From assembly GCA_965243025.1 (NCBI GenBank), contig CBDETY010000003.1, positions 2,851,506 to 2,883,505 of the forward strand: a DNA stretch of 32,000 nucleotides. Direction: 5' to 3'. The notes below the pieces were generated by a model that saw only the letters and a program-made list of their open reading frames with translations, was not told the DNA's origin and searched no databases. This stretch comes from Candidatus Latescibacterota bacterium. GTDB taxonomy: Bacteria > Latescibacterota > UBA2968 > UBA8231. This document shows positions 10,240-30,569 of this stretch, one piece after another (position 1 is the first letter of the stretch; each line of letters begins with the position of its first letter). The translations under genes and the position numbers were made by a program.

Positions 10240-11805
10240 ATGCGGGTCCTTATCAGACCTGGAGGAAGGCTTTATCCGGCATTCATTGCCTTTCTCGTCT
10301 CCGCCTGCTCTCTCGCACCGGGCCGGAACCCTCCGGTTCTCGATTCAATTGAAAAACTCCCCGGCGAGTTTGCGGGAAGTGAAATCGACGGTTCCCACCA
10401 ACCTGGTTCCCACCAACCTCTTGAGTGGTGGAAGGCTTTCGCCGACCCGGTCCTCGACCGGATAATCGAGGAGGTGCTCGCCTCGAACTTCGACCTCGCC
10501 GGAGCGGTCGCCCGGGTCGACCAGGCCAGGGCGCGGGAACGGATAGCGAGGGCGCCGGTGTTTCCGCTGCTCCAGCCTTCGGTCGGCGTCACCGACTTCG
10601 ACACACCGGCCAATGCGGGTATCGGCGCGCAACTGGACGAGGTTGGCCTGGGCCCGGACGCCCTGAGCGCATCCGGAATCGACATCCCCGACAGGCTCGG
10701 CCTGACCACCTGGCACATCGGCACCGAATTCGCCTACGAGCTCGATTTCTGGGGCCGCAACCGCAACGACGGGCGCGCCGCCGGAGCCGAGCGGCTGGCC
10801 TCCGAGTCCGACTACCTCGCTGCCCGCATGGGTGTGCTCGCCGAAACCGTGCGCACCTACCTGGAGATCGTCAACCTGCGCAGCCAGCGGAGGCTGGCAG
10901 GCGAAATCGTGGAAATCCTGCAGCACCGCGAGTCGCTGGCCGGGTCCCGTTACGGCCGCGGGCTGACCGATCTGACCCCCCTCCGCACGGCGCGGCGGAA
11001 CCTGCGCAACGCGCAGGCCGAGCTGCCGCAGATCGAAGCTGTGCTGGCGGATGCGGAGGGGCGGCTCCGGGTGCTCCTGGGAGGTTTCCGCGCGGAACTT
11101 GCAGACCTGATGCCGGAATCCATGAAGCCTTCCCCAACCCTCGAACCGGTTCCCGCGGGGATTCCGGCCGATCTCCTTGTGCAGCGGCCCGACGTCAGCG
11201 CCGCCAGGCAGCGGGTCGAAGCGGCGCGCTACTCGGTCGGCGCCCGCCGCGCCGAGCTGCTGCCGAGGCTGTCCCTGTCCGGCTCCATCGGGCTGCAGAG
11301 CACGGAGTCGGGTGAGTTGTTCAACCCCGACCAATGGTTCCGCAATCTCAGCCTGAACCTGCTCGGCCCCGTGTTTCAGGGGGCGCGGCTGCGCGGCAAT
11401 GTCGCCCTCGCGGAGGCCCGGCTGAACGAAGCCGCCGCGGCTTACGGGCGTTCGGTGGTGACCGCGGTAAGCGAGGTCGAAGCCGCCCTTGCGGGTCTGG
11501 AAGCGAGCCGCCGGCGCCACTCGCTGCTCGCATCCCTGGCGGAAGAGGCCCGGGCCGAATCGGCCTTGCAGGAGCAGCGGTACCTCTCCGGCGTGGGGGG
11601 CTACGAGGCTTTCCTGACCGCGGCCCACACCCTCCTAGGCGCACAGTCCGCACTGACGGCCGCGGAGCGCGACCTGGGTTATGCCCGTCTTGCCCTGCAC
11701 CGCGCGCTCGGAGGTTCGTGGACCGCTGACGAAGGGGAAACCGTCCGCCAGAGCGAAGCAGCCCCGGCCGCCCCGCCCCGTTCTCTTCCGACCTCCACGG
11801 AGTAA
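10240..11805 (+). CDS. RND efflux outer-membrane factor lipoprotein (NodT/OprM family)
   Basis: Lipobox FLVSAC, then the typical WWKAFADPVLDRIIEEVLASNFDLAGAVARVDQARA and duplicated OEP-type helical repeats. The ATG at 10240 is preferred over the TTG at 10234. Confidence 0.9.
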   Translation: MRVLIRPGGRLYPAFIAFLVSACSLAPGRNPPVLDSIEKLPGEFAGSEIDGSHQPGSHQPLEWWKAFADPVLDRIIEEVLASNFDLAGAVARVDQARARERIARAPVFPLLQPSVGVTDFDTPANAGIGAQLDEVGLGPDALSASGIDIPDRLGLTTWHIGTEFAYELDFWGRNRNDGRAAGAERLASESDYLAARMGVLAETVRTYLEIVNLRSQRRLAGEIVEILQHRESLAGSRYGRGLTDLTPLRTARRNLRNAQAELPQIEAVLADAEGRLRVLLGGFRAELADLMPESMKPSPTLEPVPAGIPADLLVQRPDVSAARQRVEAARYSVGARRAELLPRLSLSGSIGLQSTESGELFNPDQWFRNLSLNLLGPVFQGARLRGNVALAEARLNEAAAAYGRSVVTAVSEVEAALAGLEASRRRHSLLASLAEEARAESALQEQRYLSGVGGYEAFLTAAHTLLGAQSALTAAERDLGYARLALHRALGGSWTADEGETVRQSEAAPAAPPRSLPTSTE

Positions 11806-11811
11806 ACCCCC

Positions 11812-13023
11812 ATGTCCCGCATACGCAGCTTGATCGTTGCCGCCGCCATAATCGCGGTCTCCGTCGGCCTGGCGGCCTTTCTCGTTTCGCTGGCGCCGGA
11901 GCCGGCCCGCACCGAGCCGCCGCCGCCGGTCCCGTTCGCGCAGACCGGGCTGGTCAAGGCCGGGACCGGTCCCATACCGGTATTCGGAGCCGGTACGGTG
12001 AGGCCGAGCGCGGAGATCGCAATCACTCCGCAAGTCGGCGGCAAGGTCGTCTGGGTGCATCCGGGATTCCGCAGCGGGGGACGGGTCGGGAAGGGCCAGG
12101 CGATCTTCCGCATCGAGGAAGCGGAATACCAGTACCGGGTGCGGGAGGCAAAGGCCAATCTCGCCGCCCGGCGGGTGGCCCTGCTTCAGGAAGAGGAACA
12201 GGCCGCCATCGCCCGCGGCCAGTACGAGCTTTACTCCGGCAGCCGGGGAGATACGGCATCGGCCGCGGCAAATCCCCTGACTCTGAGAGAACCCCAGCTC
12301 GAAGCCGCCCGCGCCGCCATGGACCGCGACGAAGCCCGCCTTGCCGAGGCGAACCTCGCCCTGTCGCGAACCCGGGTGACGGCCCCCTTCGACGGCTTCG
12401 TGCGCGAGGAGTCCGTTGACGCGGGGCAGGTCGTGAGCCCCGGCCAGCCGGTCGGGCGGCTTTTCTCCGCCGATGCCGTGGAAGTGGTCGTGTCCCTGTC
12501 CGACGCCGACGCCGCCCTGATCCCGGGGCTGTGGCAACTCGAGGCAGGCGACGGGAACCGAAAGGTGGCCGCCCGGGTGGTCGCCCGCTACGGCGGGGAG
12601 AGCTTTTCCTGGGAAGGTTTCGTCGATCGGGGCGAGGCGTCCCTCGACGAACAGACGCGCACCATCGACGTGATCGTGCGTGTGCCGGACCCGTTTTCCG
12701 CGAGCGTTCCGGCTGGCGGGGCAGGCGTCCCCGGGGGCAACCCGCCGTTGCTGGTGGGTGAGTTCGTCGAGGTGGAAATCCAGGGCCTCGAGCTCGATGG
12801 CTACTTCGAGGTGCCGCGGGCTGCCCTGCGCGCCGGCGACGAGGTCTGGATGGTCGACGAGGGCGGAGTCGTGAGCATCGTTCCGGTACGGGTGCTGCAG
12901 CGGGCGGACGACCGGGTATTCGCGACCGGCAGCCTCGGAAGCGGCGGGGCGGTGATCACCGGCGGGATCCAGTTCGCCACCCAAGGCATGCTCGTCAGGA
13001 CCGGGGCGGACCCCTCGCCATGA
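11812..13023 (+). CDS. RND efflux periplasmic adaptor (membrane fusion protein, HlyD/AcrA family)
   Basis: N-terminal TM anchor, lipoyl-like motif ITPQVGGKVVWVHPGFRSGGRVGKGQAIFRIE and a coiled-coil hairpin. It starts 6 nt after the OMF stop, and its TGA overlaps the RND start (ATGA at 13020-13023). Confidence 0.9.
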   Translation: MSRIRSLIVAAAIIAVSVGLAAFLVSLAPEPARTEPPPPVPFAQTGLVKAGTGPIPVFGAGTVRPSAEIAITPQVGGKVVWVHPGFRSGGRVGKGQAIFRIEEAEYQYRVREAKANLAARRVALLQEEEQAAIARGQYELYSGSRGDTASAAANPLTLREPQLEAARAAMDRDEARLAEANLALSRTRVTAPFDGFVREESVDAGQVVSPGQPVGRLFSADAVEVVVSLSDADAALIPGLWQLEAGDGNRKVAARVVARYGGESFSWEGFVDRGEASLDEQTRTIDVIVRVPDPFSASVPAGGAGVPGGNPPLLVGEFVEVEIQGLELDGYFEVPRAALRAGDEVWMVDEGGVVSIVPVRVLQRADDRVFATGSLGSGGAVITGGIQFATQGMLVRTGADPSP

Positions 13024-16000
13024 GTCCCAACGACGATTTCCACGGGGAACGGCCCGGACCGCTCGCCTACATGGCGGGCAACGGCGTCGCCGCCAACCTG
13101 CTGATGTGGGCAATCATCGCCGCGGGACTGGTGTCGCTCACCGCCATCGAGCGCGAAGCCTGGCCGACCCAGTCCTTCTACCATATCGAAGTCTCCATGG
13201 CCTATCCCGGCGCCACGCCGGAGGAGATCGAGGAGTCGATCGTCGTAAAGATCGAGGACCAGGTCAGCGGGCTGGATGACGTGAAGGCGGTCAAGTCCGT
13301 AGCGGCCCCGGGCATGGCCTCGGTGCGGGTCCAGATGGATTACGACACCGACATGGCCCGGGCCCTGGACGATATCGAGTCTGCGGTCAGTCGCATACCG
13401 TCCTTCCCGGCCGGCGCCGAACGTCCGCGGTTCCGGGAGATGGACAACCGCATGAGCATTATGCGGCTCATCGTCCACGGCGACGTCTCCGAGCGCTCGC
13501 TGAAGGAACTGGCGTACCAGATCGAGGACGACCTCACCACGCTCCCCTCCGTCTCCCAGGTGGAAGTCAGCGGGGTCCGGAGCTACGAGATCTCCATCGA
13601 GGTTCCCCTTCACCGCCTGCGGGCCCTCGGACTCACGCTCACCGACATCGCCGGCACCATTCGCCGCAGTTCCCTGGACCTGTCGGCCGGCAGCATCGAT
13701 ACCCGGGAATCCCAGGTCCGGGTGCGCACCCTCGGCCAGAACTACGACCAGCAGGACTTCGAGGAGATCGTCCTTCTCAGCGGCCGTGACGGCACGGTCG
13801 TGCGCCTCGGCGATATCGCCGAGGTCCGCGACGGTTTCCAGGAAGCCGACCTGATCGTGCGGCACCAGAACCATCCCGCGGTCTTCGTCGAGGTCTACCG
13901 GGCCGGCGGCGAGCACGTGATGGACGTGGCCACCACCGTCCGCGAGCACCTGGCGAACGAGGTGATCCCGGCCCTGCCGGACGGCGTCGGCATCACCATG
14001 TGGAACGACGAATCCCAGGTCTATGAGGAACGCGCCGATCTTCTCCTCAAGAACGGGATCCTGGGCATGTTGCTGGTGCTGATCGCGCTCAGCCTGTTTC
14101 TCGAAATCCGGCTCGCGCTCTGGGTCGCCGTGGGCCTCGCCGTTTCGGGTATCGGCGCCCTCGCCGTCATGATGGCATTCGACGTGGCGATCAATACCAT
14201 CAGCCTGTTCTCCTTCGTCCTCGCCATAGGGATCGTCGTCGACGACGCCATCGTCGTGGCCGAGCACATTCGATACGAACGCCAGCGGGGAACACCCGGG
14301 GTCACGGCCGCGATCCGCGGGGTACGGCGGATAAAGGTGCCGTTGACGTTCGCAGTCCTCACGTCGGTGGTGGCCTTCGTCCCGCTGCTGTTCATCCCCG
14401 GCGGCATCGGCGACGTGTGGCGGGCCCTGCCGATCATCATGATCGCCATGCTGCTGGTTTCCCTGGTCGAATCGCTGCTGGTGCTGCCCAACCACCTGTC
14501 CCACCTGCACGGCCCGGAGTGGGTGCCGGCCAATGCCTTCGACCGGTTCTTCGCGGGGCTGCAGGGGCGCGTGGACGCGCTGCTGAACAGGTTCGTGCAA
14601 GGGCCCCTGGACCGGGCCCTGAGGTTCGCCACGGCCCAGCCCGGAGTGACGATGGCGGGGGCCGTGGGAATGCTCGTGCTGAGCATCTCCCTTTTGCCCG
14701 CCGGGATCGTTCCTACCACGCTGGCCGCTGACGTGGAGGGGGATATCGCGACGGTCGTCCTGGAGATGCCCGACGGGGCGACCGCTCCGAGGACGTACGA
14801 GGTGGCGCAGGAACTGGAGGCCGCGGGCAACCGGGTCATCGAACGACTCTCGCGCGGCCGGCCCGGGGACGCGTCGCCGCTGCTGACCGGCGTGACGGTG
14901 ACCGTCGGGCTGGGCTCGAGACTCGAGGGCGGGCTCAATCCGGAGCCCACCCTCAACCCGCAAGCCAATATCGCCACCATCGAGTTCAAGCTCCTGGGCG
15001 CCCAACAGAGAGAGATCTCCACCGGAGAGGTCGTGCAGGCATGGCGGGAGGAGGTGGGTGTGCTGCCGTACGTGCGCGGCATCACCTTCAGCAGCGAGGT
15101 CTTCGACCTGGGCAACCCTGTCGAGGCGGTGCTTTCGCATCCGCATCCGGAACTTCTCGCCGAGATCGCGGACTCGGTGGTCGAAGGCCTCCGAAGTGTG
15201 GATGGCGTCTACGACATACGTTCGGACCACACCCCGGGAATCCCGGAAGTTCAGCTCGAGCTGCTTCCGGAAGCGCGCACACTCGGTCTCACGCTCGAAG
15301 AGCTGGCCGGGCAAACGCGCGCCGCCTTCTTCGGCGCCGAGGCGGTCCGGGTGCAGCGGGGCCGCGAAGAGGTCCGGGTCTACGTGCGCCTGCCCGAAGA
15401 CGAGCGGAATTCGATCACCGACGTCGAAAGCTACCTGGTCCGCACGCCGGGCGGGGCCGAGGTCCCGGTCATGAGTGTGGCCTCCCTGAACCCGGGGGTG
15501 TCGCCGCCGGCCGTTCGACGGAAGGACGGCCAGCGCGTCGTCACGGTCACTGCGGACGTCGATGCTTCCGTGATTTCAGGCGACGAAGCCAACGACATCC
15601 TGGCCAATTCCATCCTCGCGGACCTGACCGCCCTGCACCCGGACCTGACATTCAGTTTCGGCGGGGAACAGCAACAGCAGCTCGAATCCCTGGACGCGCT
15701 GTACCGCGGGTTCGCGGTCGCCCTGATCATGATCTTCGCCCTCCTCGCCATCCCCCTCCGATCCTATACCAAGCCGTTCATAATCATGGCCGTGATCCCC
15801 TTCGGATTCATCGGAGTGATCCTGGGTCACTGGATCCTCGGAGTAGCCCTGAGCGCCGTATCCTTCATGGGGATCTTCGGCCTGAGCGGGGTGGTGGTGA
15901 ACGATTCCCTGGTCATGCTCGATTTCATCGATCAGAAACTCGGGGAAGGCGTCCCGGCAAGGACTGCGGTCGTGGAGGGAGCCAAGGGGCGCTTTCGTCC

Positions 16001-16214
16001 GATCATGCTCACTTCCCTGACTACGTTCCTCGGCTTCACGCCCCTCATCCTGGAACGCGCCATCCAGGCCCAGTTCCTGATCCCCTTTGCCGCCTCGCTC
16101 GGTTGCGGCATCCTCTTCACCACGGCCATACTCATGATGGTCGTTCCCGCGCTCTACACCATCCATCTGCGTCTGATTGCTTCGGGGCGCCGTTCCGGCA
16201 CCGGCAGCGCGTAG
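13020..16214 (+). CDS. RND efflux permease (AcrB/AcrD/AcrF superfamily, 1064 aa)
   Basis: Length and architecture are typical of 12-TM RND pumps. ACR_tran-like motifs include AIGIVVDDAIVVAEHI and GLSGVVVNDSLVMLDFI. Confidence 0.92.
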   Translation: MSPNDDFHGERPGPLAYMAGNGVAANLLMWAIIAAGLVSLTAIEREAWPTQSFYHIEVSMAYPGATPEEIEESIVVKIEDQVSGLDDVKAVKSVAAPGMASVRVQMDYDTDMARALDDIESAVSRIPSFPAGAERPRFREMDNRMSIMRLIVHGDVSERSLKELAYQIEDDLTTLPSVSQVEVSGVRSYEISIEVPLHRLRALGLTLTDIAGTIRRSSLDLSAGSIDTRESQVRVRTLGQNYDQQDFEEIVLLSGRDGTVVRLGDIAEVRDGFQEADLIVRHQNHPAVFVEVYRAGGEHVMDVATTVREHLANEVIPALPDGVGITMWNDESQVYEERADLLLKNGILGMLLVLIALSLFLEIRLALWVAVGLAVSGIGALAVMMAFDVAINTISLFSFVLAIGIVVDDAIVVAEHIRYERQRGTPGVTAAIRGVRRIKVPLTFAVLTSVVAFVPLLFIPGGIGDVWRALPIIMIAMLLVSLVESLLVLPNHLSHLHGPEWVPANAFDRFFAGLQGRVDALLNRFVQGPLDRALRFATAQPGVTMAGAVGMLVLSISLLPAGIVPTTLAADVEGDIATVVLEMPDGATAPRTYEVAQELEAAGNRVIERLSRGRPGDASPLLTGVTVTVGLGSRLEGGLNPEPTLNPQANIATIEFKLLGAQQREISTGEVVQAWREEVGVLPYVRGITFSSEVFDLGNPVEAVLSHPHPELLAEIADSVVEGLRSVDGVYDIRSDHTPGIPEVQLELLPEARTLGLTLEELAGQTRAAFFGAEAVRVQRGREEVRVYVRLPEDERNSITDVESYLVRTPGGAEVPVMSVASLNPGVSPPAVRRKDGQRVVTVTADVDASVISGDEANDILANSILADLTALHPDLTFSFGGEQQQQLESLDALYRGFAVALIMIFALLAIPLRSYTKPFIIMAVIPFGFIGVILGHWILGVALSAVSFMGIFGLSGVVVNDSLVMLDFIDQKLGEGVPARTAVVEGAKGRFRPIMLTSLTTFLGFTPLILERAIQAQFLIPFAASLGCGILFTTAILMMVVPALYTIHLRLIASGRRSGTGSA

Positions 16215-16245: not shown

Positions 16246-18279
16246 ATGGCTGATACTACCGAGGGCTTGACGACCCCACCCCTGACTCTGACCCAGGAAC
16301 TCATCCTGATGCTCCTCAACGAGGAGACCGGCTACTTTCACCAGGTACCCGGCTGGCACCTGAACTGCGCCGTGGTCGGTGCCGTGCTCGCGGAGCTTTC
16401 ACTCCAATCTCGCATCGACACGGACATGGAATCCCTCTTCCTCGTGGACGCGTCGGAAACGGGCAACCCGGCCCTGGACCCCATCCTCGAGGAAATCGCG
16501 AACGCACCGAGGCAACACAACGCCCAGTACTGGATCGAACGGCTCGCTCCCCGTGCCGAGTCGATCATCGATTCGGTCCTGGACCGCCTGGTTGACCTGA
16601 AGATCCTGGAATACCACGACGGCGAATTCTGGACACTGGCTCCTGCCGTCCGGCATGGGGAACTGTCCGGCACGTCGGAGGAGGGCACTGAGGGCCAGTT
16701 CATAAGGACCCGTATCAGCAGGGTCATCTTCACCGACGAGATACCCGATCCGAGAGATGTCATCATTATCTGCCTCGTCAATACCTGCGACGTATTCCGT
16801 TTCATATTCCAGCTCGACGACGAGGCGGAGGAGCGCATCGAGTTCATCTGCAGGATGGACCTGATCGGCCGCTCCCTGGCGGCTGCGGTCTCTCAGAACC
16901 TCGCCGGCCCGGCCCTTCAACGCCCTGCCCTTGCCAGGAAGATCCCGACGGTTTCGCTCACCAAGCTGCTGCGGAACCCCCATGTTCGAGACGGCAACCT
17001 GAACGCGCTCTTCGGGAGCCTTGCGGAGGAGTACGGTCCGGTGTTCCAGATCCGCCCTCCCTTCTCGAAGCCCATGATCTTCCTGGCCGGACTCGAGGCA
17101 AACCGCTGGGTGCACAAGCGGGGGCGCATGTACCTGAGAGCCAGGGACTACTTCAGCGACTTCGAGAAGGTCTACGGCGCCTCCGGCGTCCTGCCCGCCC
17201 TGGACGGCGCCGATCACTTCCGGCTTCGCAAGTCCCTGTCGCCGGCCTATTCCGCCGGGAGGCTGGGAGGGCAGCTGGACCAGCTCTACAACCAGGGGCG
17301 CAAGTACATGGCGAGCTTGACGGTAGGGGACTCCTACCGCGCCACGTCCATGTGCCGGGAGATGGTGAACGCGCAGCTCTCGCCGCTGTTCATCGGCGTC
17401 GAAACCCAGGACCTCATGGACGACCTGATGGCCTACAAAATGCGGGCCCTCAGCGTGCACATCGCCAAGCTCCTGCCAAGGTTCACGCTGAACACCCCGG
17501 GCATGAGACGCCGGGCGAAAGCCCTGGACATACTGATGCAGCGGGTCGAGAGCGTCCATACCCCCGCCCAACGGGCGGACAGCCCGCGGGACCTGGTGGA
17601 CGATTACCTCAGCTTGCACGCGAGCGACCCCCAGTTTCTCCCGGAGTCCAACCTGCGGTTCGCCTTTTCCGCGGCCCTGATCGCCAGCGTGTACCTCGGG
17701 GATACGTTCAGCCTCGTAGTCTACGCCATGGCGTCGCAGCCCGACCTCTACGCCCGGATCCAGGCCGAAGCAGATGCCCTGTTCGCCAAGGGCGACCCCG
17801 AAAGAGAGGACTTCACCCCCGCCAACATCGACGTGACGCACCGCTTCCTGATGGAGTGCCTGCGCATGTACCCCATCGTCTCCATGTCCATTCGGAACGT
17901 GATGAATACCTGCGTGGTCGAGAATCACGAGCTGCCCATGGGGGAACGGATCCACATCGCCATGACCGCCACGCATTACATGAGCGACGTCTTTCCCGAC
18001 CCCTGCAAGTTCGACATCGACCGCTACCTGCCGCCGCGCCATGAGCATCGCAACCCCGGGTACGCCCCGTACGGGCTGGGCACGCACAAGTGTCTCGGCA
18101 CCCGCTGGATGGAGCTGCACCTGGCGGCCAACCTGCTGATGCTGGCGCACTACTTCACTATTGAGGTGTCCCCGGAGAAGTACAAGACCAAGCTCCGTTT
18201 CAGTCCCTTTCCGTCGCTGAAACCGAGCAAGAAGCTGAAGTTCCGCATCTCCGGGCAGAGGCGCGAGCTGCCCGCCTGA
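16246..18279 (+). CDS. Fusion protein: N-terminal GPP34/GOLPH3-like domain plus C-terminal cytochrome P450
   Basis: GGGAGG at 16231-16236 lies 9 nt before ATG 16246. The N-terminal ~220 aa (LTLTQELILMLLNEETGYF...AVVGAVLAELSLQSRI...WIERLAPRAESIIDSVLDRLVDLKIL) follow the GPP34 pattern. The P450 part has ExxR (ECLR), a PERF-like FDIDRYL and the heme loop YAPYGLGTHKCLG. Confidence 0.85.
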   Translation: MADTTEGLTTPPLTLTQELILMLLNEETGYFHQVPGWHLNCAVVGAVLAELSLQSRIDTDMESLFLVDASETGNPALDPILEEIANAPRQHNAQYWIERLAPRAESIIDSVLDRLVDLKILEYHDGEFWTLAPAVRHGELSGTSEEGTEGQFIRTRISRVIFTDEIPDPRDVIIICLVNTCDVFRFIFQLDDEAEERIEFICRMDLIGRSLAAAVSQNLAGPALQRPALARKIPTVSLTKLLRNPHVRDGNLNALFGSLAEEYGPVFQIRPPFSKPMIFLAGLEANRWVHKRGRMYLRARDYFSDFEKVYGASGVLPALDGADHFRLRKSLSPAYSAGRLGGQLDQLYNQGRKYMASLTVGDSYRATSMCREMVNAQLSPLFIGVETQDLMDDLMAYKMRALSVHIAKLLPRFTLNTPGMRRRAKALDILMQRVESVHTPAQRADSPRDLVDDYLSLHASDPQFLPESNLRFAFSAALIASVYLGDTFSLVVYAMASQPDLYARIQAEADALFAKGDPEREDFTPANIDVTHRFLMECLRMYPIVSMSIRNVMNTCVVENHELPMGERIHIAMTATHYMSDVFPDPCKFDIDRYLPPRHEHRNPGYAPYGLGTHKCLGTRWMELHLAANLLMLAHYFTIEVSPEKYKTKLRFSPFPSLKPSKKLKFRISGQRRELPA

Positions 18280-18290
18280 GGCGCTGCGAA

Positions 18291-19322
18291 GTGGGGCTGG
18301 GAAAGCTTTCGAGAGAGCTGAGAGACGCGTACCGGGGATCGCCCGTGGCGCGGCGGGTCCGGCACTTCGAGGGCTGGCTCGACCGGGCGGCGGCGGAGCC
18401 AGGTGGCGCGGGGTACGACCACACTGAAACAGCGAAAGACTATTACGACCTCTGCAGCGGGTTCATGGTGTGGGGCTGGGGCGAATCCCTGCACTTCGCC
18501 CCCCTCACGCCTCATGAGAGTCTGGAGGAGTCCAAGGTCCGGCACCAGCGGGCGATGATCTCCGAGTTGGAGCTGCAACAGGGTATGACGGTGGTCGACG
18601 TCGGTTGTGGGGTCGGCGGCCCCATGCGCCGCGTCGTCCGTGAGGCCGGGGTCAGGGTCGTGGGCATCAACATCAATGAGATCCAGTTGGAAATGGCGAA
18701 GAGGTTGAACGCCGAGGCGGGGCTCGATCACATGGTCGATTTCGAGACCTGCAGCTTCATGGACATGAGCGCCATCGAGGACGACACCTTCGACCGGGGG
18801 TATGCCATAGAGTCAACCTGCCATGCGCCGGACAAGCAACGCGCCTTCGAGGAGGTTTTCCGCGTGCTGAAACCCGGTGCCCTGTTCTGGGGGCAGGAAA
18901 TGTGTCTGACGGACAAGTTCGATCCGCAGGACGACCGGCACCGGGCCATCGAGCAGGATCTCATGCGCGGCATTGCGCTGAAGGACATCGCCACCTTCGG
19001 GGAAGTGGATCACGCGCTCCAAGCCGCGGGATTCCAAGTCATGGAAGGGATGGACCGGGACGTCCAGGAGGGACCCTCCACACCTTGGTACAAGCCCATG
19101 GAGAGTCGCCACGGGGCGTTGGGCAACGCCTTGCGCAGGCTTCCGTGGGGCCGCAAGGCCTTCCTCGCAGGATCGAAGCTGGCGGAAGTGCTGCGGCTCT
19201 TTCCGAAAGGCTCCGCCGAAGTGGTCCGATTCCTCGATCGAACCGCGCAGGCTTATGTCGCGGGGGGCAAGGCGGGAATCTTCACGCCGCTGTACTGTTT
19301 TCTGGCTCGCAAGCCTCTTTAA
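18291..19322 (+). CDS. Sterol C-24 methyltransferase (ERG6/SMT1-like, SAM-dependent)
   Basis: GTG start 11 nt after the P450 stop, with GAGG 9 nt upstream. All SMT signature blocks are present: YYDLCSGFMVWGWGESLHFAP, VDVGCGVGGP, YAIESTCHAP, TPWYKPMES and the C-terminal LFPKGSAEV...VAGGKAGIFTPLYCFLARKP. From memory, yeast ERG6 has YYNVVTDFYEYGWGSSFHF, LDVGCGVGGP, YAIEATCHAP, IPWYYPL and GLAPEGSKEV...VAGGKSKLFTPMMLFVARKP. Confidence 0.9.
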   Translation: MGLGKLSRELRDAYRGSPVARRVRHFEGWLDRAAAEPGGAGYDHTETAKDYYDLCSGFMVWGWGESLHFAPLTPHESLEESKVRHQRAMISELELQQGMTVVDVGCGVGGPMRRVVREAGVRVVGININEIQLEMAKRLNAEAGLDHMVDFETCSFMDMSAIEDDTFDRGYAIESTCHAPDKQRAFEEVFRVLKPGALFWGQEMCLTDKFDPQDDRHRAIEQDLMRGIALKDIATFGEVDHALQAAGFQVMEGMDRDVQEGPSTPWYKPMESRHGALGNALRRLPWGRKAFLAGSKLAEVLRLFPKGSAEVVRFLDRTAQAYVAGGKAGIFTPLYCFLARKPL

Positions 19323-19433
19323 GCCTGGATGACAGGCCGGTCCTCGCCTTGGAATGGAGGGGCATCGGCGATCGTTCAGCGGGGCCGCCCACCAGGACGG
19401 AAACGGCCAGGTACGGCAGGTGTCGGGCGAGAG

Positions 19434-20519
19434 TTACCCGACCTCGCCGGACTCTGCCGTTTCACCCCCGGCGCCGTCCGGCTCAAGTTGCGGATAGAAC
19501 TGCCGGCAGTACCGGCGGTACTGCCCTATGGGGCCGTCGGCCGCACACAGCCTGGGGACAGGCCGGTACTGCTTCCGCTCCCAGATCACCACGTCCTGCA
19601 GGACATCCTGTTGCTGTTGTGACAGCAGAATGCGGTTCATCAGCCTGCTGCGAAGCTTCATCGGAAGAAACCCCAGGCCCGAGATGAACCGCCGCGGCCT
19701 GCGGATGTCCCGCATCTGGCTGACCAGTGCGAGATCGATGAGAGTGCCGTCAACGGGCGTTGCCAGCACCCACAATCGAGTATTCATACCGATGGTTTTC
19801 TCGTGGATTTCGACGAAGGAGTACCCCAGTCCATGGACGTGGGTGACGGCCGAGGTTTCGTGCACGAGGTCCTTTACCCCCAGGATCCTGCGGACCCGTT
19901 TGAAATCGAAGCAGCTCTTCAGGTAGGGGCCGTCGACCGTGACCGTACCGACCGGATTCACGTTGTCGTAGCCGTGCACGTAGCGCAGGTGTCCCAGGTC
20001 CACGGAGTTCTCGGCCGTCTCCTGGGGATGGCCGCGGAACCGGAGGGTCCTGAATCCCGGCTTCCCCCACTCCGGGCCGCCGGGGGGGTCGTCCGGAAGG
20101 TGCCAGTGCGGAGGACGGCCGCCGCTGCCGAACCAGGCGAAGACCATGCCGAGGATCTCCCTGGTCTCGTAAACCTTCAGTTTCGCGGCTTTGGGAGCCG
20201 GGGCGTTCGGAGTGGCGACGCACTGGCCGGTCGTGTCGAACTCAAACCCGTGAAACGGACAGACGAGGCGGCCGTCGCACACCTGGCCGCCGACCTCCGG
20301 CCCCAGGTACGAACCCAGGTGGGGACATACCGCGTCGGCCACGCAGACTCGGCCTGCCTCGTCGCACCAGGCGACGATTTCCTCCCCCAGCCAGGTTTTC
20401 TCGATCAGTTTCTCACGCAGAATGGACTCGCGGGTTTCTACGAAATACCACCCCTCGGGGAACGCCGGCAACTCGTCGATTCGATTCAAGGCAGGTCGTT
20501 GGGAGTTGCTGACTGGCAT
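19434..20519 (-). CDS. Rieske [2Fe-2S] non-heme iron oxygenase (Neverland / KshA / SdmA-like, sterol-type)
   Basis: Rieske motif CPHLGSYLG...CPFHGFEF and mononuclear iron motif ENSVDLGHLRYVH. I placed the start at ATG 20519 (MPVSN..., GGA-rich stretch ~9 nt upstream); the longest ORF starts at a TTG at 20567. Confidence 0.8.
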   Translation of the reverse strand: MPVSNSQRPALNRIDELPAFPEGWYFVETRESILREKLIEKTWLGEEIVAWCDEAGRVCVADAVCPHLGSYLGPEVGGQVCDGRLVCPFHGFEFDTTGQCVATPNAPAPKAAKLKVYETREILGMVFAWFGSGGRPPHWHLPDDPPGGPEWGKPGFRTLRFRGHPQETAENSVDLGHLRYVHGYDNVNPVGTVTVDGPYLKSCFDFKRVRRILGVKDLVHETSAVTHVHGLGYSFVEIHEKTIGMNTRLWVLATPVDGTLIDLALVSQMRDIRRPRRFISGLGFLPMKLRSRLMNRILLSQQQQDVLQDVVIWERKQYRPVPRLCAADGPIGQYRRYCRQFYPQLEPDGAGGETAESGEVG

Positions 20520-20613
20520 GTCCGGAGATCCTGTCATCAGCACCGAGATAATATCAGAGTTATGCAAGTTCCCTGGTATGAAATGCCCAGGGGGGAACCC
20601 GAGGGTGATTCAG

Positions 20614-21765
20614 TCACCTGACTGAACCACCGCCGCCGTGAACTTCGACCGTCATGTGATCGAAACGATCCCGGTCCCACTGCGCTCCCCAGCCCGGTTC
20701 CGTCGATGGGGTGATTTGTCCGTCCTCGATGACCGGGGTGTTGAGCATGCCCCAGACCGCCCCCTTGTCGGTGAAGTCGTCGAGCCCCGCCTCGTAGAAG
20801 CTGGTGTTTTCAATGCAGCAGCCCAGGTGGGCATGGACCTGTCCGAACAGTCCCCCTTCGGCGTTCAACTCGACGGTTGTGCCGTGCATCTCGGCGAAGT
20901 GGGCCATCTTCAGCACCTGGGTGGCTCCGAAACGGGCGTTTGCCCGCAGCAGGTCGGTGGCTCCCGATATCAGTCTTTGCGTCGACAGGCCGATATCCCC
21001 CATCAGCGTCTCGTTTCCCATGACCGGCATGTCCAGTTCCCGGCAGAGCACCCGATACTGATTCTCTTTCTGCTCGTGCATCGGCTCTTCCAGCCAGACG
21101 AAGTCGAGCTCTTCCATCACGTGACCGACCTCTATGGCTTCCCGCAGCGTGTAGGAACAGACCGGGTCGTTGAGTAAAAGGTAATCAGGGCCTACTGCGT
21201 CGCGGACCTCCCGGAAAATCGGAATGTCCGCTTTGCCCCCTTTGTAACTGTGGAATTTGTAGGCGTCGATTCCGCGCTTCCTGCCCTCCTCGATCACCTC
21301 CAGGTACACCTCGAGCGGGCTGTCGCTGCTGGTGAGGTACACCGGGAAACGATCGCGCACCCGGCCGATGAGGTCGCAAACAGGCATGCCCGCCGCTTTG
21401 CCGAGGATATCCCACAGGCAGTTGTCGAAGCTGCCCGCCCAGCCGGCGGTCCCCTGATACATCCAGCGGTTGCCCTTCCACAGCAGCTGATAGAGCCGTT
21501 CCCGATTCAGCGGATTTTCCCCCAGAACCTGGGTTCGCAACACCTCGGCCTGGCCGGGTGTCATAGTCGTCGTGGAGATCCCGTCGATGCCTTCGTCGGT
21601 CTGCACTTTCAGGAAGTTCATCCGCAAAGGTTTGTCGCTTGCAAAGCTCTTTCCACCGTGGGTGTACTGGATCCGCGACAGTCCCGGCACTTCCCGGAGT
21701 TTGAAGCAAGGCTGTTTCTGTTCCGGATTTTCGAGAACGATCAGTTTCACTTCCGTTATTCTCAT
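20614..21765 (-). CDS. Enolase-superfamily enzyme (mandelate racemase / muconate lactonizing / acid-sugar dehydratase-like)
   Basis: MRITEVKLIVLE..., DNCLWDILGKAAGMPVCDLIG and metal-ligand contexts LLLNDP and FVWLEEPM. The start at ATG 21765 is preferred, with 21831 as the alternative. The gene ends 46 nt upstream of the Rieske ORF. Confidence 0.8.
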   Translation of the reverse strand: MRITEVKLIVLENPEQKQPCFKLREVPGLSRIQYTHGGKSFASDKPLRMNFLKVQTDEGIDGISTTTMTPGQAEVLRTQVLGENPLNRERLYQLLWKGNRWMYQGTAGWAGSFDNCLWDILGKAAGMPVCDLIGRVRDRFPVYLTSSDSPLEVYLEVIEEGRKRGIDAYKFHSYKGGKADIPIFREVRDAVGPDYLLLNDPVCSYTLREAIEVGHVMEELDFVWLEEPMHEQKENQYRVLCRELDMPVMGNETLMGDIGLSTQRLISGATDLLRANARFGATQVLKMAHFAEMHGTTVELNAEGGLFGQVHAHLGCCIENTSFYEAGLDDFTDKGAVWGMLNTPVIEDGQITPSTEPGWGAQWDRDRFDHMTVEVHGGGGSVR

Positions 21766-21918
21766 GTCTCTGGCGAGCCTGTTGAGAGGATTTGTCTGTT
21801 CGGTCGATCCTGCAGACAGCGAGCGAGGCATCTGTCCAGTCTGCCTCGATGCTCGATGTCAGGGGTGTGACCCGGGCCTTTCTGGTACAAGCCGCCTGGA
21901 AACCACGCTTGTTGCCGG

Positions 21919-24582
21919 CTAGTAAACCACCGCGACGGTGCGGATGACATCGCTCTGGTCGAGGCCGGCGCCCTTGTCGTCGGCCTCGACGTGGAAGCGG
22001 AGAACATACATCCCGGGAGGGACACATCTGCCGGCCTCGTCCTCACCGTCCCATTTCAGCTCGTATTCACCTGCGCCCACCTCCCCGCGTTTTCGCAGGG
22101 TGCGCACGGGCCGACCGCTCAGGTCGTGGACGGACACCTCCACCGCACGGCTTGCCCCCACGAGAACGACCGCGAAACGGAGGACAAGCTCGTCGTTGAC
22201 GCCGTCGCTGTTCGGGGTGAAGACCGGAGGTAGAATATCGAAGGCCGTCATGAGCTGTCGGCGTTGCTGAACCCCTACCACTACCAGGCTGTTGCTGTCG
22301 ACGCCGCGGGCGGCATCGCCCCCGTCCACCTGCTGCCAGACCGTCTCTCCGTCGCCGGCGAAGCGGGCAAACGCCTGCACCTGCCCGCCGACGGAAAACA
22401 GACGGCCCGTGAAGTCGAGGCGAAGCACCTCGATGCCCTCTTCCGGTTCGATGAGGGGAAAGGCGACCAGCAGACTGTCCTCGGAGGTGTCGAGCTGTAT
22501 GGCGCCCTCAATGGCGAAGGGGGAGGACAGACCTCCTTCCGCCAGCAGGTCCTGCTCCGCTCCGGCGAGTATGCGGCTGAAGACATCCAGGCTCATGCCG
22601 TCAGGCGCGGTGAGCAGCAGTCCGTCGAAGCCCGGGTTCCCGCGGCCGAAGTCCGGCCGCACGTACAGGGAAAAGGGCCATTCCACCGCCAGCGACTCGA
22701 CCCTCCCCGGGGTCACCTCCCCCAGAAAACGCTGCGCCAGCGGGTCGGAGTACTTCAGTCGCACGCTGCGCAGGGCGGCGGCGGCCTCGGGGCTGTCCGA
22801 GATCAGGGTGGCGCGCATCTGCACGAAGTTGCGCGGCGACGGCGAGGTGATGCGGCTGCCGGACACCCGGTACGGCTCGCTCCAGGCACTGGCGTCGCTG
22901 CCCATGACCTCCTCGATGACGATGTCCCCTCTGAGAGTATTGGGGGGGAGTTTGACCTTCGGGTTGGGCTCCTTGAGCTTGTCGTACCTCTCCGCGGTCA
23001 CCTCCTCGCCGAGGCCGTTGTAATAATGGCTTACCTCCGACTTCGTGCTGCTGGTGCGGGTCTGCAGGAAGACGCCGGTCCCCGGAGGGGTGTCGGCGTC
23101 CCACTCGATGGAGGTCAGCGTGCGCGTCCCCCCCGGGTCGATGAGGGGTGACTCGAGGCTCACCCGCGGCTGAAACCCATCGCCGTACATCTGCAGCTCG
23201 GTGATCGGAAAATTGACAATGTTCACTCCTCTTTCATACACGATCCTGAAGTATCGAGCCTGCAGGGGCGCCCCGAAGCTGTGGCGCTCGGCTTCCATCT
23301 GGGTTCTGTGCACCTCGTAAAACCGGCCCCCTTCCCCCCGGCGGCCTCGAAGCTTGGCCACCGGGACCTGCTCGATGCGCTTGCCCGTGACCCAGTTGGG
23401 GCTGCCGTCGACCTGCCGGGAACCGTCGGAGAAATCGAGCTGGAAATTCCCGAACGTGTAGTTGTGACCGGCACCCCGCAGGTTCATGAGGATCCTCAGG
23501 CTGCTGATCCAGAAGGACGACCCGAGATCCACGACCATTTCAGGCACGAGCGCCTTCTGGACCTGGAGGGGAAAAGCGGTCAGCACGTTGCCGTCGAACA
23601 TGTCGCCAGGAGCAGCTTCGCTCGGGGGCTGGGTCGCAACGCCGCCCCCCCGTTCGAGGAGTCGGCGCGCCAGGTCTTCCCCCTCCTCCCAGACCTCGAG
23701 CTCTGCCAGACGAGGCCGTTCGCGGCGATAGTGGCGGATCGGTCCCCGCCGCTCCTCGGGCACGAGGAGGTAGTTTTCTTCCGGCACGGCAAGCAGCCGT
23801 CCATCGCTCAGGCGTTTGGTGAATTCCACCGCACCCCTGACTTCCTCAGGAAGCTCCCGGTACGTTTCGGCGTCGACCTCCACACCGCGGCCAAGGCGCG
23901 ATCCGCGCACGATCACCTGGACGTAGCGGGCGACCATGGTGCGGGCATTGTCCGGCACCTCGGAAAAGTCGATCTCGAACAGGCGCCGGGTCGTGTTCGG
24001 CGTGAACAAGCGCAGGACGGGCAGGTATTCGAGGGATTCCCCGGCGAGGGTGGAGACCGGTTTCTGCCCGTCCGAGGTCAGCACGTCGAAAAGCAGAAAG
24101 GGATCGCCCAGATCCTCGTCGACAAAGCGCAGCACGATCCGGTTGAGGACGACGACGCGGCCCAGATCGAGGGTGAACCACCACCGGGACGGGATGTCGG
24201 CTCCCTCGGGAAGGGGGCCAGGCTCCCAGAAAGTTGCCGCATCCCCGTCCAGGACTCCGGGTACCCCTTCACGATTCGAGCCCGCGGCGACGGCGTCGAG
24301 AAGGTCGATCTCCTCCGGCGCCTTGCCGGCCAGGTGTTCCGGGGGCCGCTCGCGGAGGAAATCGACAATGCGGTCCCTGGCGTTGGTATCCATGGTCCAG
24401 CGCCTCGGTTGCACGCCGGAAGGAAGAAGCTCCACCGTGCCCACGGGAAACAGCCAGTGCTCCCAGTGCTCCGGAGTGTCGGCCACGATCTGACGCCCGG
24501 TGCGGTCCAGCCGGTACGCGCCGGCCTGGCCCCAAAGGGAGGTGCTCGTGAACACGAGCACGGCAAGGGCGACGGCGAACAC
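21919..24582 (-). CDS. Large secreted protein (~887 aa) with discoidin-like domain(s) and a C-terminal FTPNxDGVND / FlgD-Ig-like domain
   Basis: Proposed GTG start at 24582, 16 nt after the upstream stop, gives a hydrophobic N-terminus FAVALAVLVFTSTSLWGQA. LDGDAATFWEP resembles a discoidin (F5/8 type C) domain. The C-terminus FTPNSDGVNDELVLRF...VHDLSGRPVRTL...GEYELKWDGEDEAGRCVPPGMYVLRF resembles FlgD-Ig / T9SS-type sorting domains. Confidence 0.7.
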   Translation of the reverse strand: MFAVALAVLVFTSTSLWGQAGAYRLDRTGRQIVADTPEHWEHWLFPVGTVELLPSGVQPRRWTMDTNARDRIVDFLRERPPEHLAGKAPEEIDLLDAVAAGSNREGVPGVLDGDAATFWEPGPLPEGADIPSRWWFTLDLGRVVVLNRIVLRFVDEDLGDPFLLFDVLTSDGQKPVSTLAGESLEYLPVLRLFTPNTTRRLFEIDFSEVPDNARTMVARYVQVIVRGSRLGRGVEVDAETYRELPEEVRGAVEFTKRLSDGRLLAVPEENYLLVPEERRGPIRHYRRERPRLAELEVWEEGEDLARRLLERGGGVATQPPSEAAPGDMFDGNVLTAFPLQVQKALVPEMVVDLGSSFWISSLRILMNLRGAGHNYTFGNFQLDFSDGSRQVDGSPNWVTGKRIEQVPVAKLRGRRGEGGRFYEVHRTQMEAERHSFGAPLQARYFRIVYERGVNIVNFPITELQMYGDGFQPRVSLESPLIDPGGTRTLTSIEWDADTPPGTGVFLQTRTSSTKSEVSHYYNGLGEEVTAERYDKLKEPNPKVKLPPNTLRGDIVIEEVMGSDASAWSEPYRVSGSRITSPSPRNFVQMRATLISDSPEAAAALRSVRLKYSDPLAQRFLGEVTPGRVESLAVEWPFSLYVRPDFGRGNPGFDGLLLTAPDGMSLDVFSRILAGAEQDLLAEGGLSSPFAIEGAIQLDTSEDSLLVAFPLIEPEEGIEVLRLDFTGRLFSVGGQVQAFARFAGDGETVWQQVDGGDAARGVDSNSLVVVGVQQRRQLMTAFDILPPVFTPNSDGVNDELVLRFAVVLVGASRAVEVSVHDLSGRPVRTLRKRGEVGAGEYELKWDGEDEAGRCVPPGMYVLRFHVEADDKGAGLDQSDVIRTVAVVY

Positions 24583-24598
24583 GGGAACCGCACCCCTT

Positions 24599-26599
24599 TC
24601 AATAGGCCAGGGAGACGACGCGGCTTGCCGCGAAGGTGGCGTCGTCGGTTTCGACCTCGAGTCGCAGCACGTAGATGCCGGGGGGCAGGAGCTTGCTGTT
24701 GCCGTCCATGCCGTCCCAGGAGACGGTATGGGGTCCGCTTGCACGTTGCGCCAACGGCAATTCGGCCCGGCGCCTCCCGGTCAGATCGAACACCTTCAGG
24801 CTTACGGGCACAGCCGCCGACAGGTTCACGAGATCGAAGCGGATGTGGAGAAGGTCGTTGACGCGGTCGCCGTTGGGGGTGAACAGCCCGGTGGAAACCT
24901 CGATCTCCTCGAGCACCCGCCCCCCCACCTCGGCCAGTTCGACGGTGAGGGAGTTGCTCTCGGCCAGAAAGTCGGCATCCCCCGGCTCCAGCAACTGAGG
25001 AACCTCCCACGGTCGGGTACTGTTGGAGACCCTGCCCTCGAACACCGTGCCGTAGTCGTAGATGCGGGCCTTGAAGACCACGGTCACGACCTCCCCGGTC
25101 CGGCGGGCGTCAATTCGCGGCAGGTCGACCTCGAACCCGGTCGAGTCGACCGTTGCCCGCCATTGCGAGAACTCCAGAGAAACTCCGTCGATGGCGACCG
25201 ATTCGACGCTGTCGACAGGCGTCGGTGTGGTGATCCGGATGCGGTCGAAGCCCAGGTCCCCCGTCCTGATCTCCGGCCGCAGGAAGAGGGTGAAAGGGGT
25301 CGACTCTCTGGCCTCGGCCTGTCGCGGTTCAATTTCGGCCACGGCGCGGGTCGCAGCCTGTGGTCGGGTCACCGGAAACTCGAGGTAGTCGAGGCGGCCG
25401 CCCGCATGGAAGTCCCCTCTGAACTGCACGTACCGGCGGGGGCGGCTGGTGCGGAATTCCGCCGCCTGGTCGACGAATCCCAGGGGCGCGCTCCAGTTCG
25501 ACCAGTTGTCGAGATCCGGGGCGGTGCCCCCCTGCGCACCCGGCTCCAATCCGAGATAGGCGGTCCGGTCCAGGGGATCACCCTCGGGGTTGTAGCGGCT
25601 CCGTTCGGCCCCCCGAAAGGTTTTGCGGAAGTAAATGTTGGGATCGGCGGTATCGCCGCTGCGCAACCGCAGATCCACCCTCGCTCCCGGGTGGAGCACT
25701 CCCGACCAGGCGATAGGGCCCAGAATCGCGAACTCCTCCAGATCGATCACGTTGGAGGTATAGTTCGAGCTCACGACGAACCCATCGGCGTAGACCTCGA
25801 ACTCCGCGATCCACCAGTTCCCGATCTCTGCGATGAAGATGATGTTCTGCACCGGTTCGCCCGAAAAATCGAACTCGAGCACCCCGCTCGTGTTGTCCAG
25901 GACCTCCCTGACGACATCGAAGTCCATGCTGAGGAACCCAACCCCATCCGCCTGCTTGTACCAGATTTCTCTCTCGCGAAATCCGATCCTCAACGGATCG
26001 CCGTCGTTGATTCCGAGGGTGTAGGTGGGAATGTACCTGTCCTCTTCGGTTCCCGGCGGGGGGTACAGGCGAACTGTGCGCAGGGGAAACACCCCCGGCA
26101 GGGTCAGCCAGATGTATTTACACCTTCCCTGGTAGGTATCATAGCCTTGAACGCGATCGGCATCGCCGCAATAGGGTGCGGCCTGGCCGCCGATATAGGT
26201 GCCGCCACTCTGGTAGAAGGTCTGAAAATCCCCATCCCACATGACCTCCATGCCGGGTTCGAACTGGAACCCGTTGTACGTCTCCCACGATTTGATGGTG
26301 CCGCCCCCGTCCATGACGGTGGGCACGAGGTTCATATCGCCGGCCACGAATTGGGGACGGATGGAATCGGGACGGATTTCGACGAGACGGGAGCTGCCGA
26401 AAGGCCGCGCGTTGAGCTGTTCCCACGAGAGCTGGACGAACCGCAAGGAGTCGGCCGGGGCGCCCAGGGCGTCGGGGTCCGGAGGGGGAATGCTCTCGCC
26501 GCCGATCCGGTAGATCGTCAGGCCCGAACTCTGGGACAGCCCCATCAGGCCCGCGGCCCAACAGCACAGAATCACCAGCCGAGTCGACAGAGATCTCAT
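24599..26599 (-). CDS. Large secreted protein (666 aa), paralogous in architecture to the downstream gene
   Basis: Signal peptide MRSLSTRLVILCCWAAGLMGLSQS, discoidin-like WIAEFEVYADGF, a shared WS.P...R.(Y/F)VQ.R motif, and the C-terminus FTPNGDRVNDLLHIRF...VFDLTGRRRAEL...HTVSWDGMDGNSKLLPPGIYVLRL. Confidence 0.7.
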   Translation of the reverse strand: MRSLSTRLVILCCWAAGLMGLSQSSGLTIYRIGGESIPPPDPDALGAPADSLRFVQLSWEQLNARPFGSSRLVEIRPDSIRPQFVAGDMNLVPTVMDGGGTIKSWETYNGFQFEPGMEVMWDGDFQTFYQSGGTYIGGQAAPYCGDADRVQGYDTYQGRCKYIWLTLPGVFPLRTVRLYPPPGTEEDRYIPTYTLGINDGDPLRIGFREREIWYKQADGVGFLSMDFDVVREVLDNTSGVLEFDFSGEPVQNIIFIAEIGNWWIAEFEVYADGFVVSSNYTSNVIDLEEFAILGPIAWSGVLHPGARVDLRLRSGDTADPNIYFRKTFRGAERSRYNPEGDPLDRTAYLGLEPGAQGGTAPDLDNWSNWSAPLGFVDQAAEFRTSRPRRYVQFRGDFHAGGRLDYLEFPVTRPQAATRAVAEIEPRQAEARESTPFTLFLRPEIRTGDLGFDRIRITTPTPVDSVESVAIDGVSLEFSQWRATVDSTGFEVDLPRIDARRTGEVVTVVFKARIYDYGTVFEGRVSNSTRPWEVPQLLEPGDADFLAESNSLTVELAEVGGRVLEEIEVSTGLFTPNGDRVNDLLHIRFDLVNLSAAVPVSLKVFDLTGRRRAELPLAQRASGPHTVSWDGMDGNSKLLPPGIYVLRLEVETDDATFAASRVVSLAY

Positions 26600-30555: not shown

Positions 30556-30569
30556 TATGGACCTTCCTG

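Follow-up and report, generated by a model that had tools for sequence, protein, structure and literature searches.

We describe a gene cassette in a 32,000-nt stretch of a Candidatus Latescibacterota genome (contig CBDETY010000003.1, positions 2,851,506 to 2,883,505), hereafter called the window, in which a GPP34-cytochrome P450 fusion, a methyltransferase of the sterol methyltransferase (SMT) family and a Rieske oxygenase lie next to a tripartite efflux pump. Its best and most likely reading is that of a sterol-tailoring and export (trafficking) module with non-canonical side-chain alkylation; we put the probability that the cassette acts on sterols at about 0.6. The apparently retooled SMT, the two oxygenases and the transporter make up a widely distributed, strongly conserved candidate set, and they are a clear case of one multi-gene unit common to at least ten phyla in the genomes of sponge and coral symbionts. 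For animals, the oldest chemical evidence in use is that of side-chain-alkylated steranes (24-isopropylcholestane, 26-methylstigmastane), and in the literature of 2023-2025 the enzymes of C-26 methylation are undiscovered and the residence of the relevant methyltransferases, in sponges or in bacteria, is unresolved. Moreover, the genomic context recasts the GPP34-P450 family, published as a symbiosis effector, as what looks like a lipid-modifying enzyme.

Gene layout, sterol-pathway linkage and distribution

The core of the cassette is a trio of adjacent genes that a sequence-only reading of the window had already assigned to sterol chemistry, and the open reading frames (ORFs), the coding-type G+C content at third codon positions (GC3, 0.80-0.85) and the Pfam domains bear out both their positions and their enzyme types (P450, SMT and Rieske). 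The first gene (16246-18279, + strand) encodes the 677-aa fusion, which has the 'GPP34_L' architecture (PF05719 plus PF00067): a GPP34/GOLPH3-like domain at residues 15-216 (16288-16893, +; PF05719, E 9e-31, profile positions 1-199 of 201) precedes a cytochrome P450 domain at about residues 247-677 (16984-18279, +; PF00067, E 4e-34). A Shine-Dalgarno sequence, GGGAGG, lies ahead of ATG 16246, and this start is confirmed by a database protein (P0123) that is 100% identical to the fusion at 677 aa. The SMT gene (18291-19322, +; 343 aa; Sterol_MT_C plus class-I methyltransferase), whose product belongs to what we call the 'cassette' clade, begins exactly 11 nt past the P450 stop codon, just as had been reported. 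The KshA-like Rieske non-heme-iron oxygenase (19434-20519, -; 361 aa; Rieske PF00355 plus KshA_C PF19298) is encoded by a gene that converges on the plus-strand genes, with a 111-nt spacer to the SMT gene (19323-19433); its ORF extends to TTG 20567 (19434-20567), and ATG 20519 is the likely start since homologues are 344-365 aa long.

Upstream of the trio lie three genes on the fusion's strand, which the sequence-only reading had missed along with the GPP34 domain and the cross-phylum distribution in sponge and coral symbionts. The first gene of the apparent operon encodes an OEP/TolC-like outer-membrane efflux protein (OEP; 10234-11805, +; Pfam OEP PF02321, E 9e-43; GC3 0.79); it is followed after 6 nt by the gene of a membrane-fusion (periplasmic adaptor) protein (MFP; 11812-13023, +; Pfam HlyD_3/HlyD_D23), which overlaps by 4 nt that of a 1064-aa AcrB-type resistance-nodulation-division (RND) permease (13020-16214, +; Pfam ACR_tran, E 1e-157). 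An ACR_tran permease with adjoining MFP and OEP genes is a tripartite, HAE1-like RND system. From OEP to SMT, five same-strand genes follow each other with gaps of -4 to 31 nt and no terminator-like sites between them (the counts of the promoter/terminator scan were near those of shuffled sequence), and GC3 is of coding type, 0.79-0.86, across all six genes. The 32-kb window holds no tRNA gene; other signs of an integration site were not looked for.

To place the cassette in context, SMT relatives were scanned in one genome per GTDB species, and the best 80 of 549 (75-90% SMT identity) were taken as related loci, in which genes were counted by tblastn and ORF clustering within 10 kb of the SMT. 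In one of them (L026), the 70,077-bp contig JAAXIB010000027.1 of a member of the Nitrospirales from Porites lutea, the contig that Brown et al. (2023; PMC10070321) tested as 'Nitrospira sp., coral reef', the genes run in the order ERG24, SdmA, SdmB and canonical SMT, then flavin adenine dinucleotide (FAD) oxidoreductase, outer-membrane protein barrel, KshA_C Rieske, cassette SMT and GPP34-P450. Other Nitrospirales loci have fusions of SMO with oxidosqualene cyclase (OSC) and CYP51-like genes beside the cassette, and in about 10 loci (nine Nitrospirales, one unclassified) parts of an SMO-OSC/CYP51/ERG24/SdmA/SdmB/canonical-SMT cluster lie within 10 kb of the trio. The sterol connection proposed from the sequence is supported by this context. 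P450 or Rieske proteins are not mentioned in Brown et al. (2023), and our literature search found no paper joining GPP34, sterols and sponges in the sense of this cassette. Kelly et al. (2022; PMC9531527) reported ERG24-CYP51-LSS clusters in 115 of 537 metagenome-assembled genomes (MAGs) from Ircinia, and the phyla closely overlap with ours. Like these bacterial sterol clusters (PMC10070321, PMC9531527), the cassette occurs in the same hosts and phyla, with cross-phylum transfer, purifying selection and an SMT-family gene. Unlike them, it stands in the window apart from core genes, has a P450 other than CYP51 and a Rieske protein other than SdmA, and its SMT belongs to a clade inactive in assays so far; its efflux pump, too, is not part of the described clusters.

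Across the 80 loci, gene order and strand vary by phylum while the gene set is kept. The fusion (median length 677 aa) is present in 75 and a KshA_C Rieske gene in 62. An AcrB-type RND gene occurs in 37 loci, directly upstream of the fusion in most of those, with products mostly 84-93% identical to that of the window (71-74% in four Longimicrobiales loci); the bearers are Gemmatimonadota, Latescibacterota, Acidobacteriota, Opitutales and Rhodothermales. In related loci, OEP orthologues (66-76% identical) again lie upstream of the cassette, and MFP orthologues show 54-74% identity. Twelve Chloroflexota loci have, in place of the AcrB-type RND, an MMPL/HAE3 transporter of 827-889 aa (e.g., L077:11040-13709) that matches Sterol-sensing domain, Patched-like and HpnN-like models and, weakly, BstA, and the Nitrospirales, Nitrospinota and some unclassified loci have a gene for an outer-membrane beta-barrel protein. 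A gene for an FAD amine-oxidase/protoporphyrinogen-oxidase-like protein, 71-95% conserved, is found in 35-36 loci (e.g., L003, L004, L007, L012, L046), often between SMT and Rieske; tblastn gave no hit to it in the window, where the SMT-Rieske spacer measures only the 111 nt mentioned above.

In all, the cassette was found in at least ten phyla, with protein identities of 60-95% across taxa: Gemmatimonadota/Longimicrobiales, Latescibacterota, Dehalococcoidia and other Chloroflexota, Nitrospirales, Nitrospinota, Acidobacteriota, Acidimicrobiia/Actinomycetes (Actinomycetota), Binatia, Opitutales and Rhodothermales. Wherever the isolate name tells the host, these are sponge or coral MAGs (Ircinia, Rhopaloeides, Coscinoderma, Aplysina, Porites lutea), the nearest relatives bearing the names IRC, RHO, COS, SB066x, APA and Plut. 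In a neighbour-joining tree the cassette SMTs are monophyletic, with a long stem, short internal branches and intermixed phyla: a Gemmatimonadota sequence is nested among Latescibacterota, Bryobacterales and Rhodothermales sequences fall inside Longimicrobiales, and Acidobacteriota fall inside Gemmatimonadota. The base composition of the cassette (GC 0.54-0.65, standard deviation 0.025) varies less than that of its flanks (0.51-0.71, standard deviation 0.054), with a regression slope of 0.32, and within the window GC is 0.63-0.64 in the fusion, SMT and Rieske genes versus 0.67 in the rest. By these compositional and phylogenetic signs, the cassette is a horizontally transferred module among sponge and coral symbiont genomes.

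The SMT-family methyltransferase

The window methyltransferase has the domain architecture of the SMT family (Methyltransf_11/25/31 at residues 96-210; PF08498 at residues 282-342, E 4e-16) and is 35.5% identical to S. cerevisiae ERG6 over 330 aa (E 3e-57 to 7e-66), within the limits that Brown et al. (2023; PMC10070321) set for family membership (BLASTP to ERG6 with ≥30% identity and E ≤1e-50). Like ERG6/SMT1, it joins a class-I S-adenosylmethionine (SAM) methyltransferase to Sterol_MT_C, with regions I-IV recognisable (GWGESLHF, VDVGCGVGGP, YAIESTCHAP). The ERG6 query was validated by its reproducing two published identities. One is that of the L026 cassette gene at 9995-11029 (TTG start), which we identify as IMG gene 2682229270 because its 35.632% identity to ERG6 matches the published 35.63%; the other is that of the neighbouring canonical SMT (38.81%; IMG gene 2682229274). 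The window SMT is 81% identical to 2682229270 and 40-44% identical to canonical bacterial SMTs.

The sequence-only reading had called this protein an unmistakable ERG6-type C-24 methyltransferase. The SMT family assignment stands, but the C-24 part claimed too much, given the residues listed below and the inactivity of the 81%-identical orthologue. According to Brown and Welander (2025), 25 residues are conserved in all functional SMTs; the window SMT keeps 23 of them and has lost two (F89L, T78S). We aligned the 80 cassette SMTs with 10 canonical SMTs from the same loci. Position 89 is L instead of F in 80/80 and position 78 is S or N instead of T in 72/80 (S in the window), while M replaces Y/F at position 81 in 80/80, and L replaces T/C at 219, Q replaces Y at 223 and I occupies 249, each in 79/80. 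These clade-fixed changes (in the window Y81M, T219L, Y223Q and I249) set the protein apart from ERG6/SMT1, whereas the SAM motif, H90, F91, E195 and W286 are retained by the clade. In ERG6, mutation of positions 81, 219 and 223 changes the number of methylations, and in the docking models of the same authors, residues 81 and 249 are no more than 5 Å away from the side chain of the sterol (Brown and Welander, 2025). Judged by its residues, the cassette SMT looks like an enzyme that has been retooled and is still active, rather than like a decaying copy or a plain C-24 SMT. A pseudo-enzyme in decay was considered as well and rejected, because the SAM motif and the catalytic residues are invariant and identity amounts to 75-90% across phyla.

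Experimental data on this clade come from the supplementary alignment of Brown and Welander (2025), which assigns 2682229270 to its 'No activity' group for desmosterol and 24-methylenecholesterol. Grouped with it are a Petrosia SMT and the second SMT copies of an Aplysina contig and of a Theonella Chromatiales MAG; these three sponge-source proteins may belong to the cassette clade. It is conceivable, though in our view rather unlikely, that the cassette nevertheless holds an ordinary C-24 SMT (ERG6/SMT1-like, acting on delta-24 sterols) and that the negatives reflect poor expression or the need for a different nucleus, such as lanosterol, cycloartenol, 4-methyl sterols or a nucleus modified by the P450 and Rieske enzymes. 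Family membership with Sterol_MT_C and the identity to ERG6, as well as the 23 of 25 functional residues kept in the window protein, speak for this explanation, and the assayed substrates were desmosterol and 24-methylenecholesterol only. Moreover, inactivity was also seen for four assayed SMTs in which the conserved residues are kept (Brown and Welander, 2025), hence the assay gives negatives for other reasons as well. However, at least ten cassette loci already encode a canonical SMT (Y/F81, F89, Y223) together with the cassette SMT, and simple redundancy is unlikely because the two share a locus. In addition, side-chain-handling positions bear the fixed substitutions in 79-80 of 80 sequences, the long stem separates the cassette clade from canonical SMTs, and the verified orthologue 2682229270 is inactive, as are the three second-copy sponge SMTs that may be of the same clade.

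The preferred reading, non-canonical side-chain alkylation, has a more specific version, in which the cassette SMT would be a non-C-24 side-chain methyltransferase working, for example, at C-26 of delta-25(27) sterols such as (epi)codisterol; in this specific form it appears improbable to us. Were it true, the products would have aplysterol- or 26-methylstigmastane-type side chains, the GPP34-P450, the Rieske protein and the FAD oxidoreductase would prepare or finish the olefin, and the pump would deliver the product to the outer membrane or the host. In that case, part of the 'sponge biomarker' sterol signal would be made by a cassette shared among bacterial symbionts.

More than 2,700 database relatives of the SMT were found at E ≤1e-10; the best 120, which we examined, are 75-100% identical, and the few named ones are from Gemmatimonadota and Nitrospira. 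Among 1.84 billion cluster representatives, only two full-length sequences exceed 50% identity (56% and 51%), and the third-closest full-length relative stands at 40%. L89 and Q223 are common to all three, whereas position 81 is M in the first two and I in the third; the 56% relative also adjoins a GPP34-P450 gene. One database protein of 477 aa (P0058, in a cluster of nine members) has the last 50 residues of KshA_C in frame with an 84%-identical cassette SMT; it could be a Rieske-SMT fusion or else the result of a read-through gene call.

The oxygenases, the GPP34 domain and the efflux pump

The Rieske protein contains the motifs CPHLG...CPFHGF and ENSVDLGHLRYVH, as quoted in the sequence-only reading, and has the KshA/Neverland-type combination of domains (PF00355, E 5e-15; PF19298, E 8e-22). 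It resembles KshA in its Rieske CxH...CxxH motif, its non-heme-iron D/H motif and its KshA_C domain, and both metal sites (C65/H67/C87/H90 and D174/H177/H182/D309) are invariant among homologues. Neverland/DAF-36 cholesterol 7-desaturases share a KshA_C-type domain. The AlphaFold 2 (AF2) model of the protein has a predicted local distance difference test score (pLDDT) of 82, and in a Foldseek comparison of this model against the PDB, ranks 1-6 are taken by KshA5, KshA1 and M. tuberculosis KshA (E 4e-21 to 1e-17, TM 0.71-0.76, 22-25% identity), so the closest predicted three-dimensional similarity is to KshA steroid 9-alpha-hydroxylases. Identity to KshA is no higher than these 22-25%, and, unlike in KshA systems, neither a KshB-type reductase nor steroid-catabolic genes lie nearby, and the context is biosynthetic/tailoring. 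The earlier assignment to a Neverland/KshA/SdmA group holds for its KshA-like side, but not for SdmA: against the SdmA model (NCBIfam NF052579, cut-off 600 bits) the window protein scores 31 bits, through its Rieske domain only. The SdmA orthologue of L026, which has a VanA_C domain and adjoins SdmB, scores 414.7 bits, likewise below the cut-off. SdmA identity was rejected on this score, on KshA_C in place of VanA_C, on the lack of SdmB in the window and on the coexistence of this Rieske type with SdmA elsewhere.

In the P450 domain, the heme ligand Cys616, E537/R540 of EXXR and G485-D486 (G-D-T of the I-helix) are invariant among homologues. Among proteins of solved structure, CYP51 and CYP120 match it best (E about 3e-18, residues about 253-664). 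CYP51 identity was rejected: with the CYP51-like P450s beside SMO-OSC in Nitrospirales loci that also hold the fusion, the domain shares no more than 22-31% identity, hence the P450 forms a separate family.

The sequence-only reading was right in that the P450 is fused to another domain, but it left the partner unidentified. This partner is GPP34; both domains are present in all 120 best fusion homologues, and the GPP34 part of the AF2 model reaches a pLDDT of about 80-90. Ferreira et al. (2025; PMC11706023) described such two-domain proteins as 'GPP34_L' (656 proteins), reported only from sponge (and coral) symbionts and absent from free-living relatives, found in 92.6% of the sponge MAGs of Gemmatimonadota and in the same share of those of Latescibacterota, and expressed in Aplysina aerophoba metatranscriptomes. 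The window fusion is identical to GPP34_L in architecture and length, and the taxa match. For GPP34_S, that paper reports only nearby P450 genes; its main text mentions neither sterols or methyltransferases nor a linkage to SMT, KshA-like Rieske, FAD oxidoreductase or RND/MMPL transporters.

Ferreira et al. (2025) proposed that GPP34_L is a secreted effector that binds host phosphatidylinositol 4-phosphate (PI4P) and blocks phagosome maturation (anti-phagocytosis), which would leave the P450 as an accessory and the neighbouring genes as incidental. The restriction to symbionts, the expression in the sponge and the PI4P binding of the eukaryotic proteins GOLPH3 and Vps74 (summarised in PMC11706023) agree with this proposal; for the cassette described here, we nevertheless judge it highly improbable. 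Against it, the fusion is co-oriented with an SMT gene 11 nt downstream, and the two are linked in 75 of 80 loci, where a Rieske gene and a lipid-type transporter accompany them. The N-terminus of the fusion (MADTTEGLTTPPLTLTQE...) has, by inspection, no signal-peptide-like hydrophobic stretch, and a P450 requires heme and cytoplasmic redox partners. The GPP34 domain matches Vps74 weakly; in this weak alignment W88 of Vps74 falls 2 residues from the invariant W37 of the fusion, and R97 aligns with V44 in a conserved A-V-V-G segment. R97 is the residue that we take to be PI4P-binding, within a pocket presumably formed by W88, R97, K178 and R181. Given the operon context, the lack of a signal-peptide-like N-terminus, the cofactor needs of the P450 and the valine at the position of R97, the fusion looks like a cytoplasmic lipid-modifying enzyme rather than an effector, and GPP34 is probably the part that docks the P450 to a membrane or to lipid.

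In several loci (L014, L017, L019, L020, L027, L032-L034, L038, L052, L056, L071, L075, L081), the cassette SMT is accompanied by a paralogous fusion from a second GPP34-P450 lineage, with about 41-47% identity to the window protein. Two of these, L034 and L056, have an additional ORF matching the GPP34 domain alone.

In the sterol-tailoring and export reading, the cytoplasmic GPP34-P450 and the KshA-like Rieske protein would oxidise or desaturate a sterol of bacterial or host origin, the GPP34 domain possibly docking the P450 to membrane or lipid. The SMT, translationally linked to the P450, may move a methyl group from SAM to a side-chain olefin, either one other than the classical delta-24(25)/delta-24(28) or that of a sterol whose nucleus both oxygenases had modified first. 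The OEP-MFP-RND pump, probably co-transcribed, would carry substrate or product across the envelope, presumably outwards. This arrangement is like that of BstABC, the sterol transport system of Methylococcus, and of the hopanoid transporter HpnN, where an RND-superfamily transporter likewise stands beside triterpenoid-modifying genes; unlike BstA and HpnN, the window pump comes with an MFP and an OEP of its own, as a tripartite AcrB-type (HAE1-like) system, and it scores ≤22 bits against those models.

Several points weigh against this reading. No cassette enzyme has a demonstrated activity, and the assays of the SMT clade are so far negative, on the two substrates tried. The P450 is without a close characterised relative, the AF2 model of the fusion (pLDDT 54 overall, below 50 in the P450 domain) is too poor for fold comparison, and no ferredoxin or reductase gene lies near the cassette. 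The 32-kb window holds no homologue of oxidosqualene cyclase, whose absence had been noted before, nor of CYP51, ERG24, SdmA or SdmB; this content fits the earlier description of a tailoring cassette rather than a core pathway. The RND permease matches generic multidrug-efflux models of NCBIfam only (RND_permease_2 subfamily, 417 bits, below cut-off), and no specific NCBIfam family was found for the P450, the SMT or the permease. That the window and most of the 'OZ/OY/CAXX/CBD' MAGs come from sponges or corals is presumed from isolate names and PMC11706023. Finally, SMT-like enzymes can act outside sterols altogether. The SMT-like TMTs of Botryococcus methylate non-sterol triterpenes, namely squalene and botryococcene.

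These last enzymes, together with the generic efflux matches of the permease, the window's lack of sterol-synthesis genes and the chemically rich hosts in whose symbionts the cassette is found, would suit a detoxification and efflux island, in which a toxic sponge lipophile (a terpenoid or a non-sterol triterpene, for instance a squalene-like olefin) is modified and then expelled by the RND pump. We consider it doubtful that this is what the cassette does. In Nitrospirales it is embedded in an OSC-CYP51-ERG24-SdmAB cluster, the Chloroflexota transporter has Sterol-sensing/Patched-like and HpnN-like signatures, and the closest folds of the Rieske protein act on steroid nuclei; moreover, sponge-symbiont MAGs of closely overlapping phyla carry sterol-synthesis clusters (PMC9531527).

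Flanking genes of the window

The genes that flank the cassette in the window, namely an enolase-superfamily gene, genes for type IX secretion system (T9SS)-type proteins, a hydantoinase pair and orphan ORFs at 3158 and 8712, are treated as unrelated neighbours, since they are not conserved beside the cassette in other loci. The stretch 8001-10000, just upstream of the efflux operon, has the lowest GC of the window (0.58-0.61) and contains ORF 8712-9746 (+; 344 aa), which has no Pfam/NCBIfam match and no counterpart in the 80 loci; this stretch could be the edge of the acquired segment. The orphan ORF 3158-4348 (+; 396 aa) likewise lacks a Pfam/NCBIfam match and has a strong coding signal (GC3 0.87). 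The gene at 624-2696 (-; 690 aa) has, in a single ORF, an unusual combination of a subtilase (Peptidase_S8, residues 32-256) and a DUF1611_N/DUF1611 P-loop region (345-664).

On the other side, an enolase-superfamily (acid-sugar dehydratase-like) gene (20614-21831, -) adjoins the Rieske gene. It is followed by two genes, 21919-24744 (-) and 24599-26599 (-), for large proteins with C-terminal FlgD_ig/CHU_C (type IX secretion) domains, one of which also has F5/8 type C-like regions. Because these ORFs overlap by about 146 nt, the 21919-24744 gene probably starts later than the ORF list has it. The hydantoinase A/B pair is at 26697-28787 (-) and 28777-30693 (-), and in seven related loci similar pairs (38-43% identity) occur downstream of the cassette, at a distance of a few kb: L013, L018, L051, L055 and L067 (unclassified), L078 (Latescibacterota) and L072 (Gemmatimonadota).

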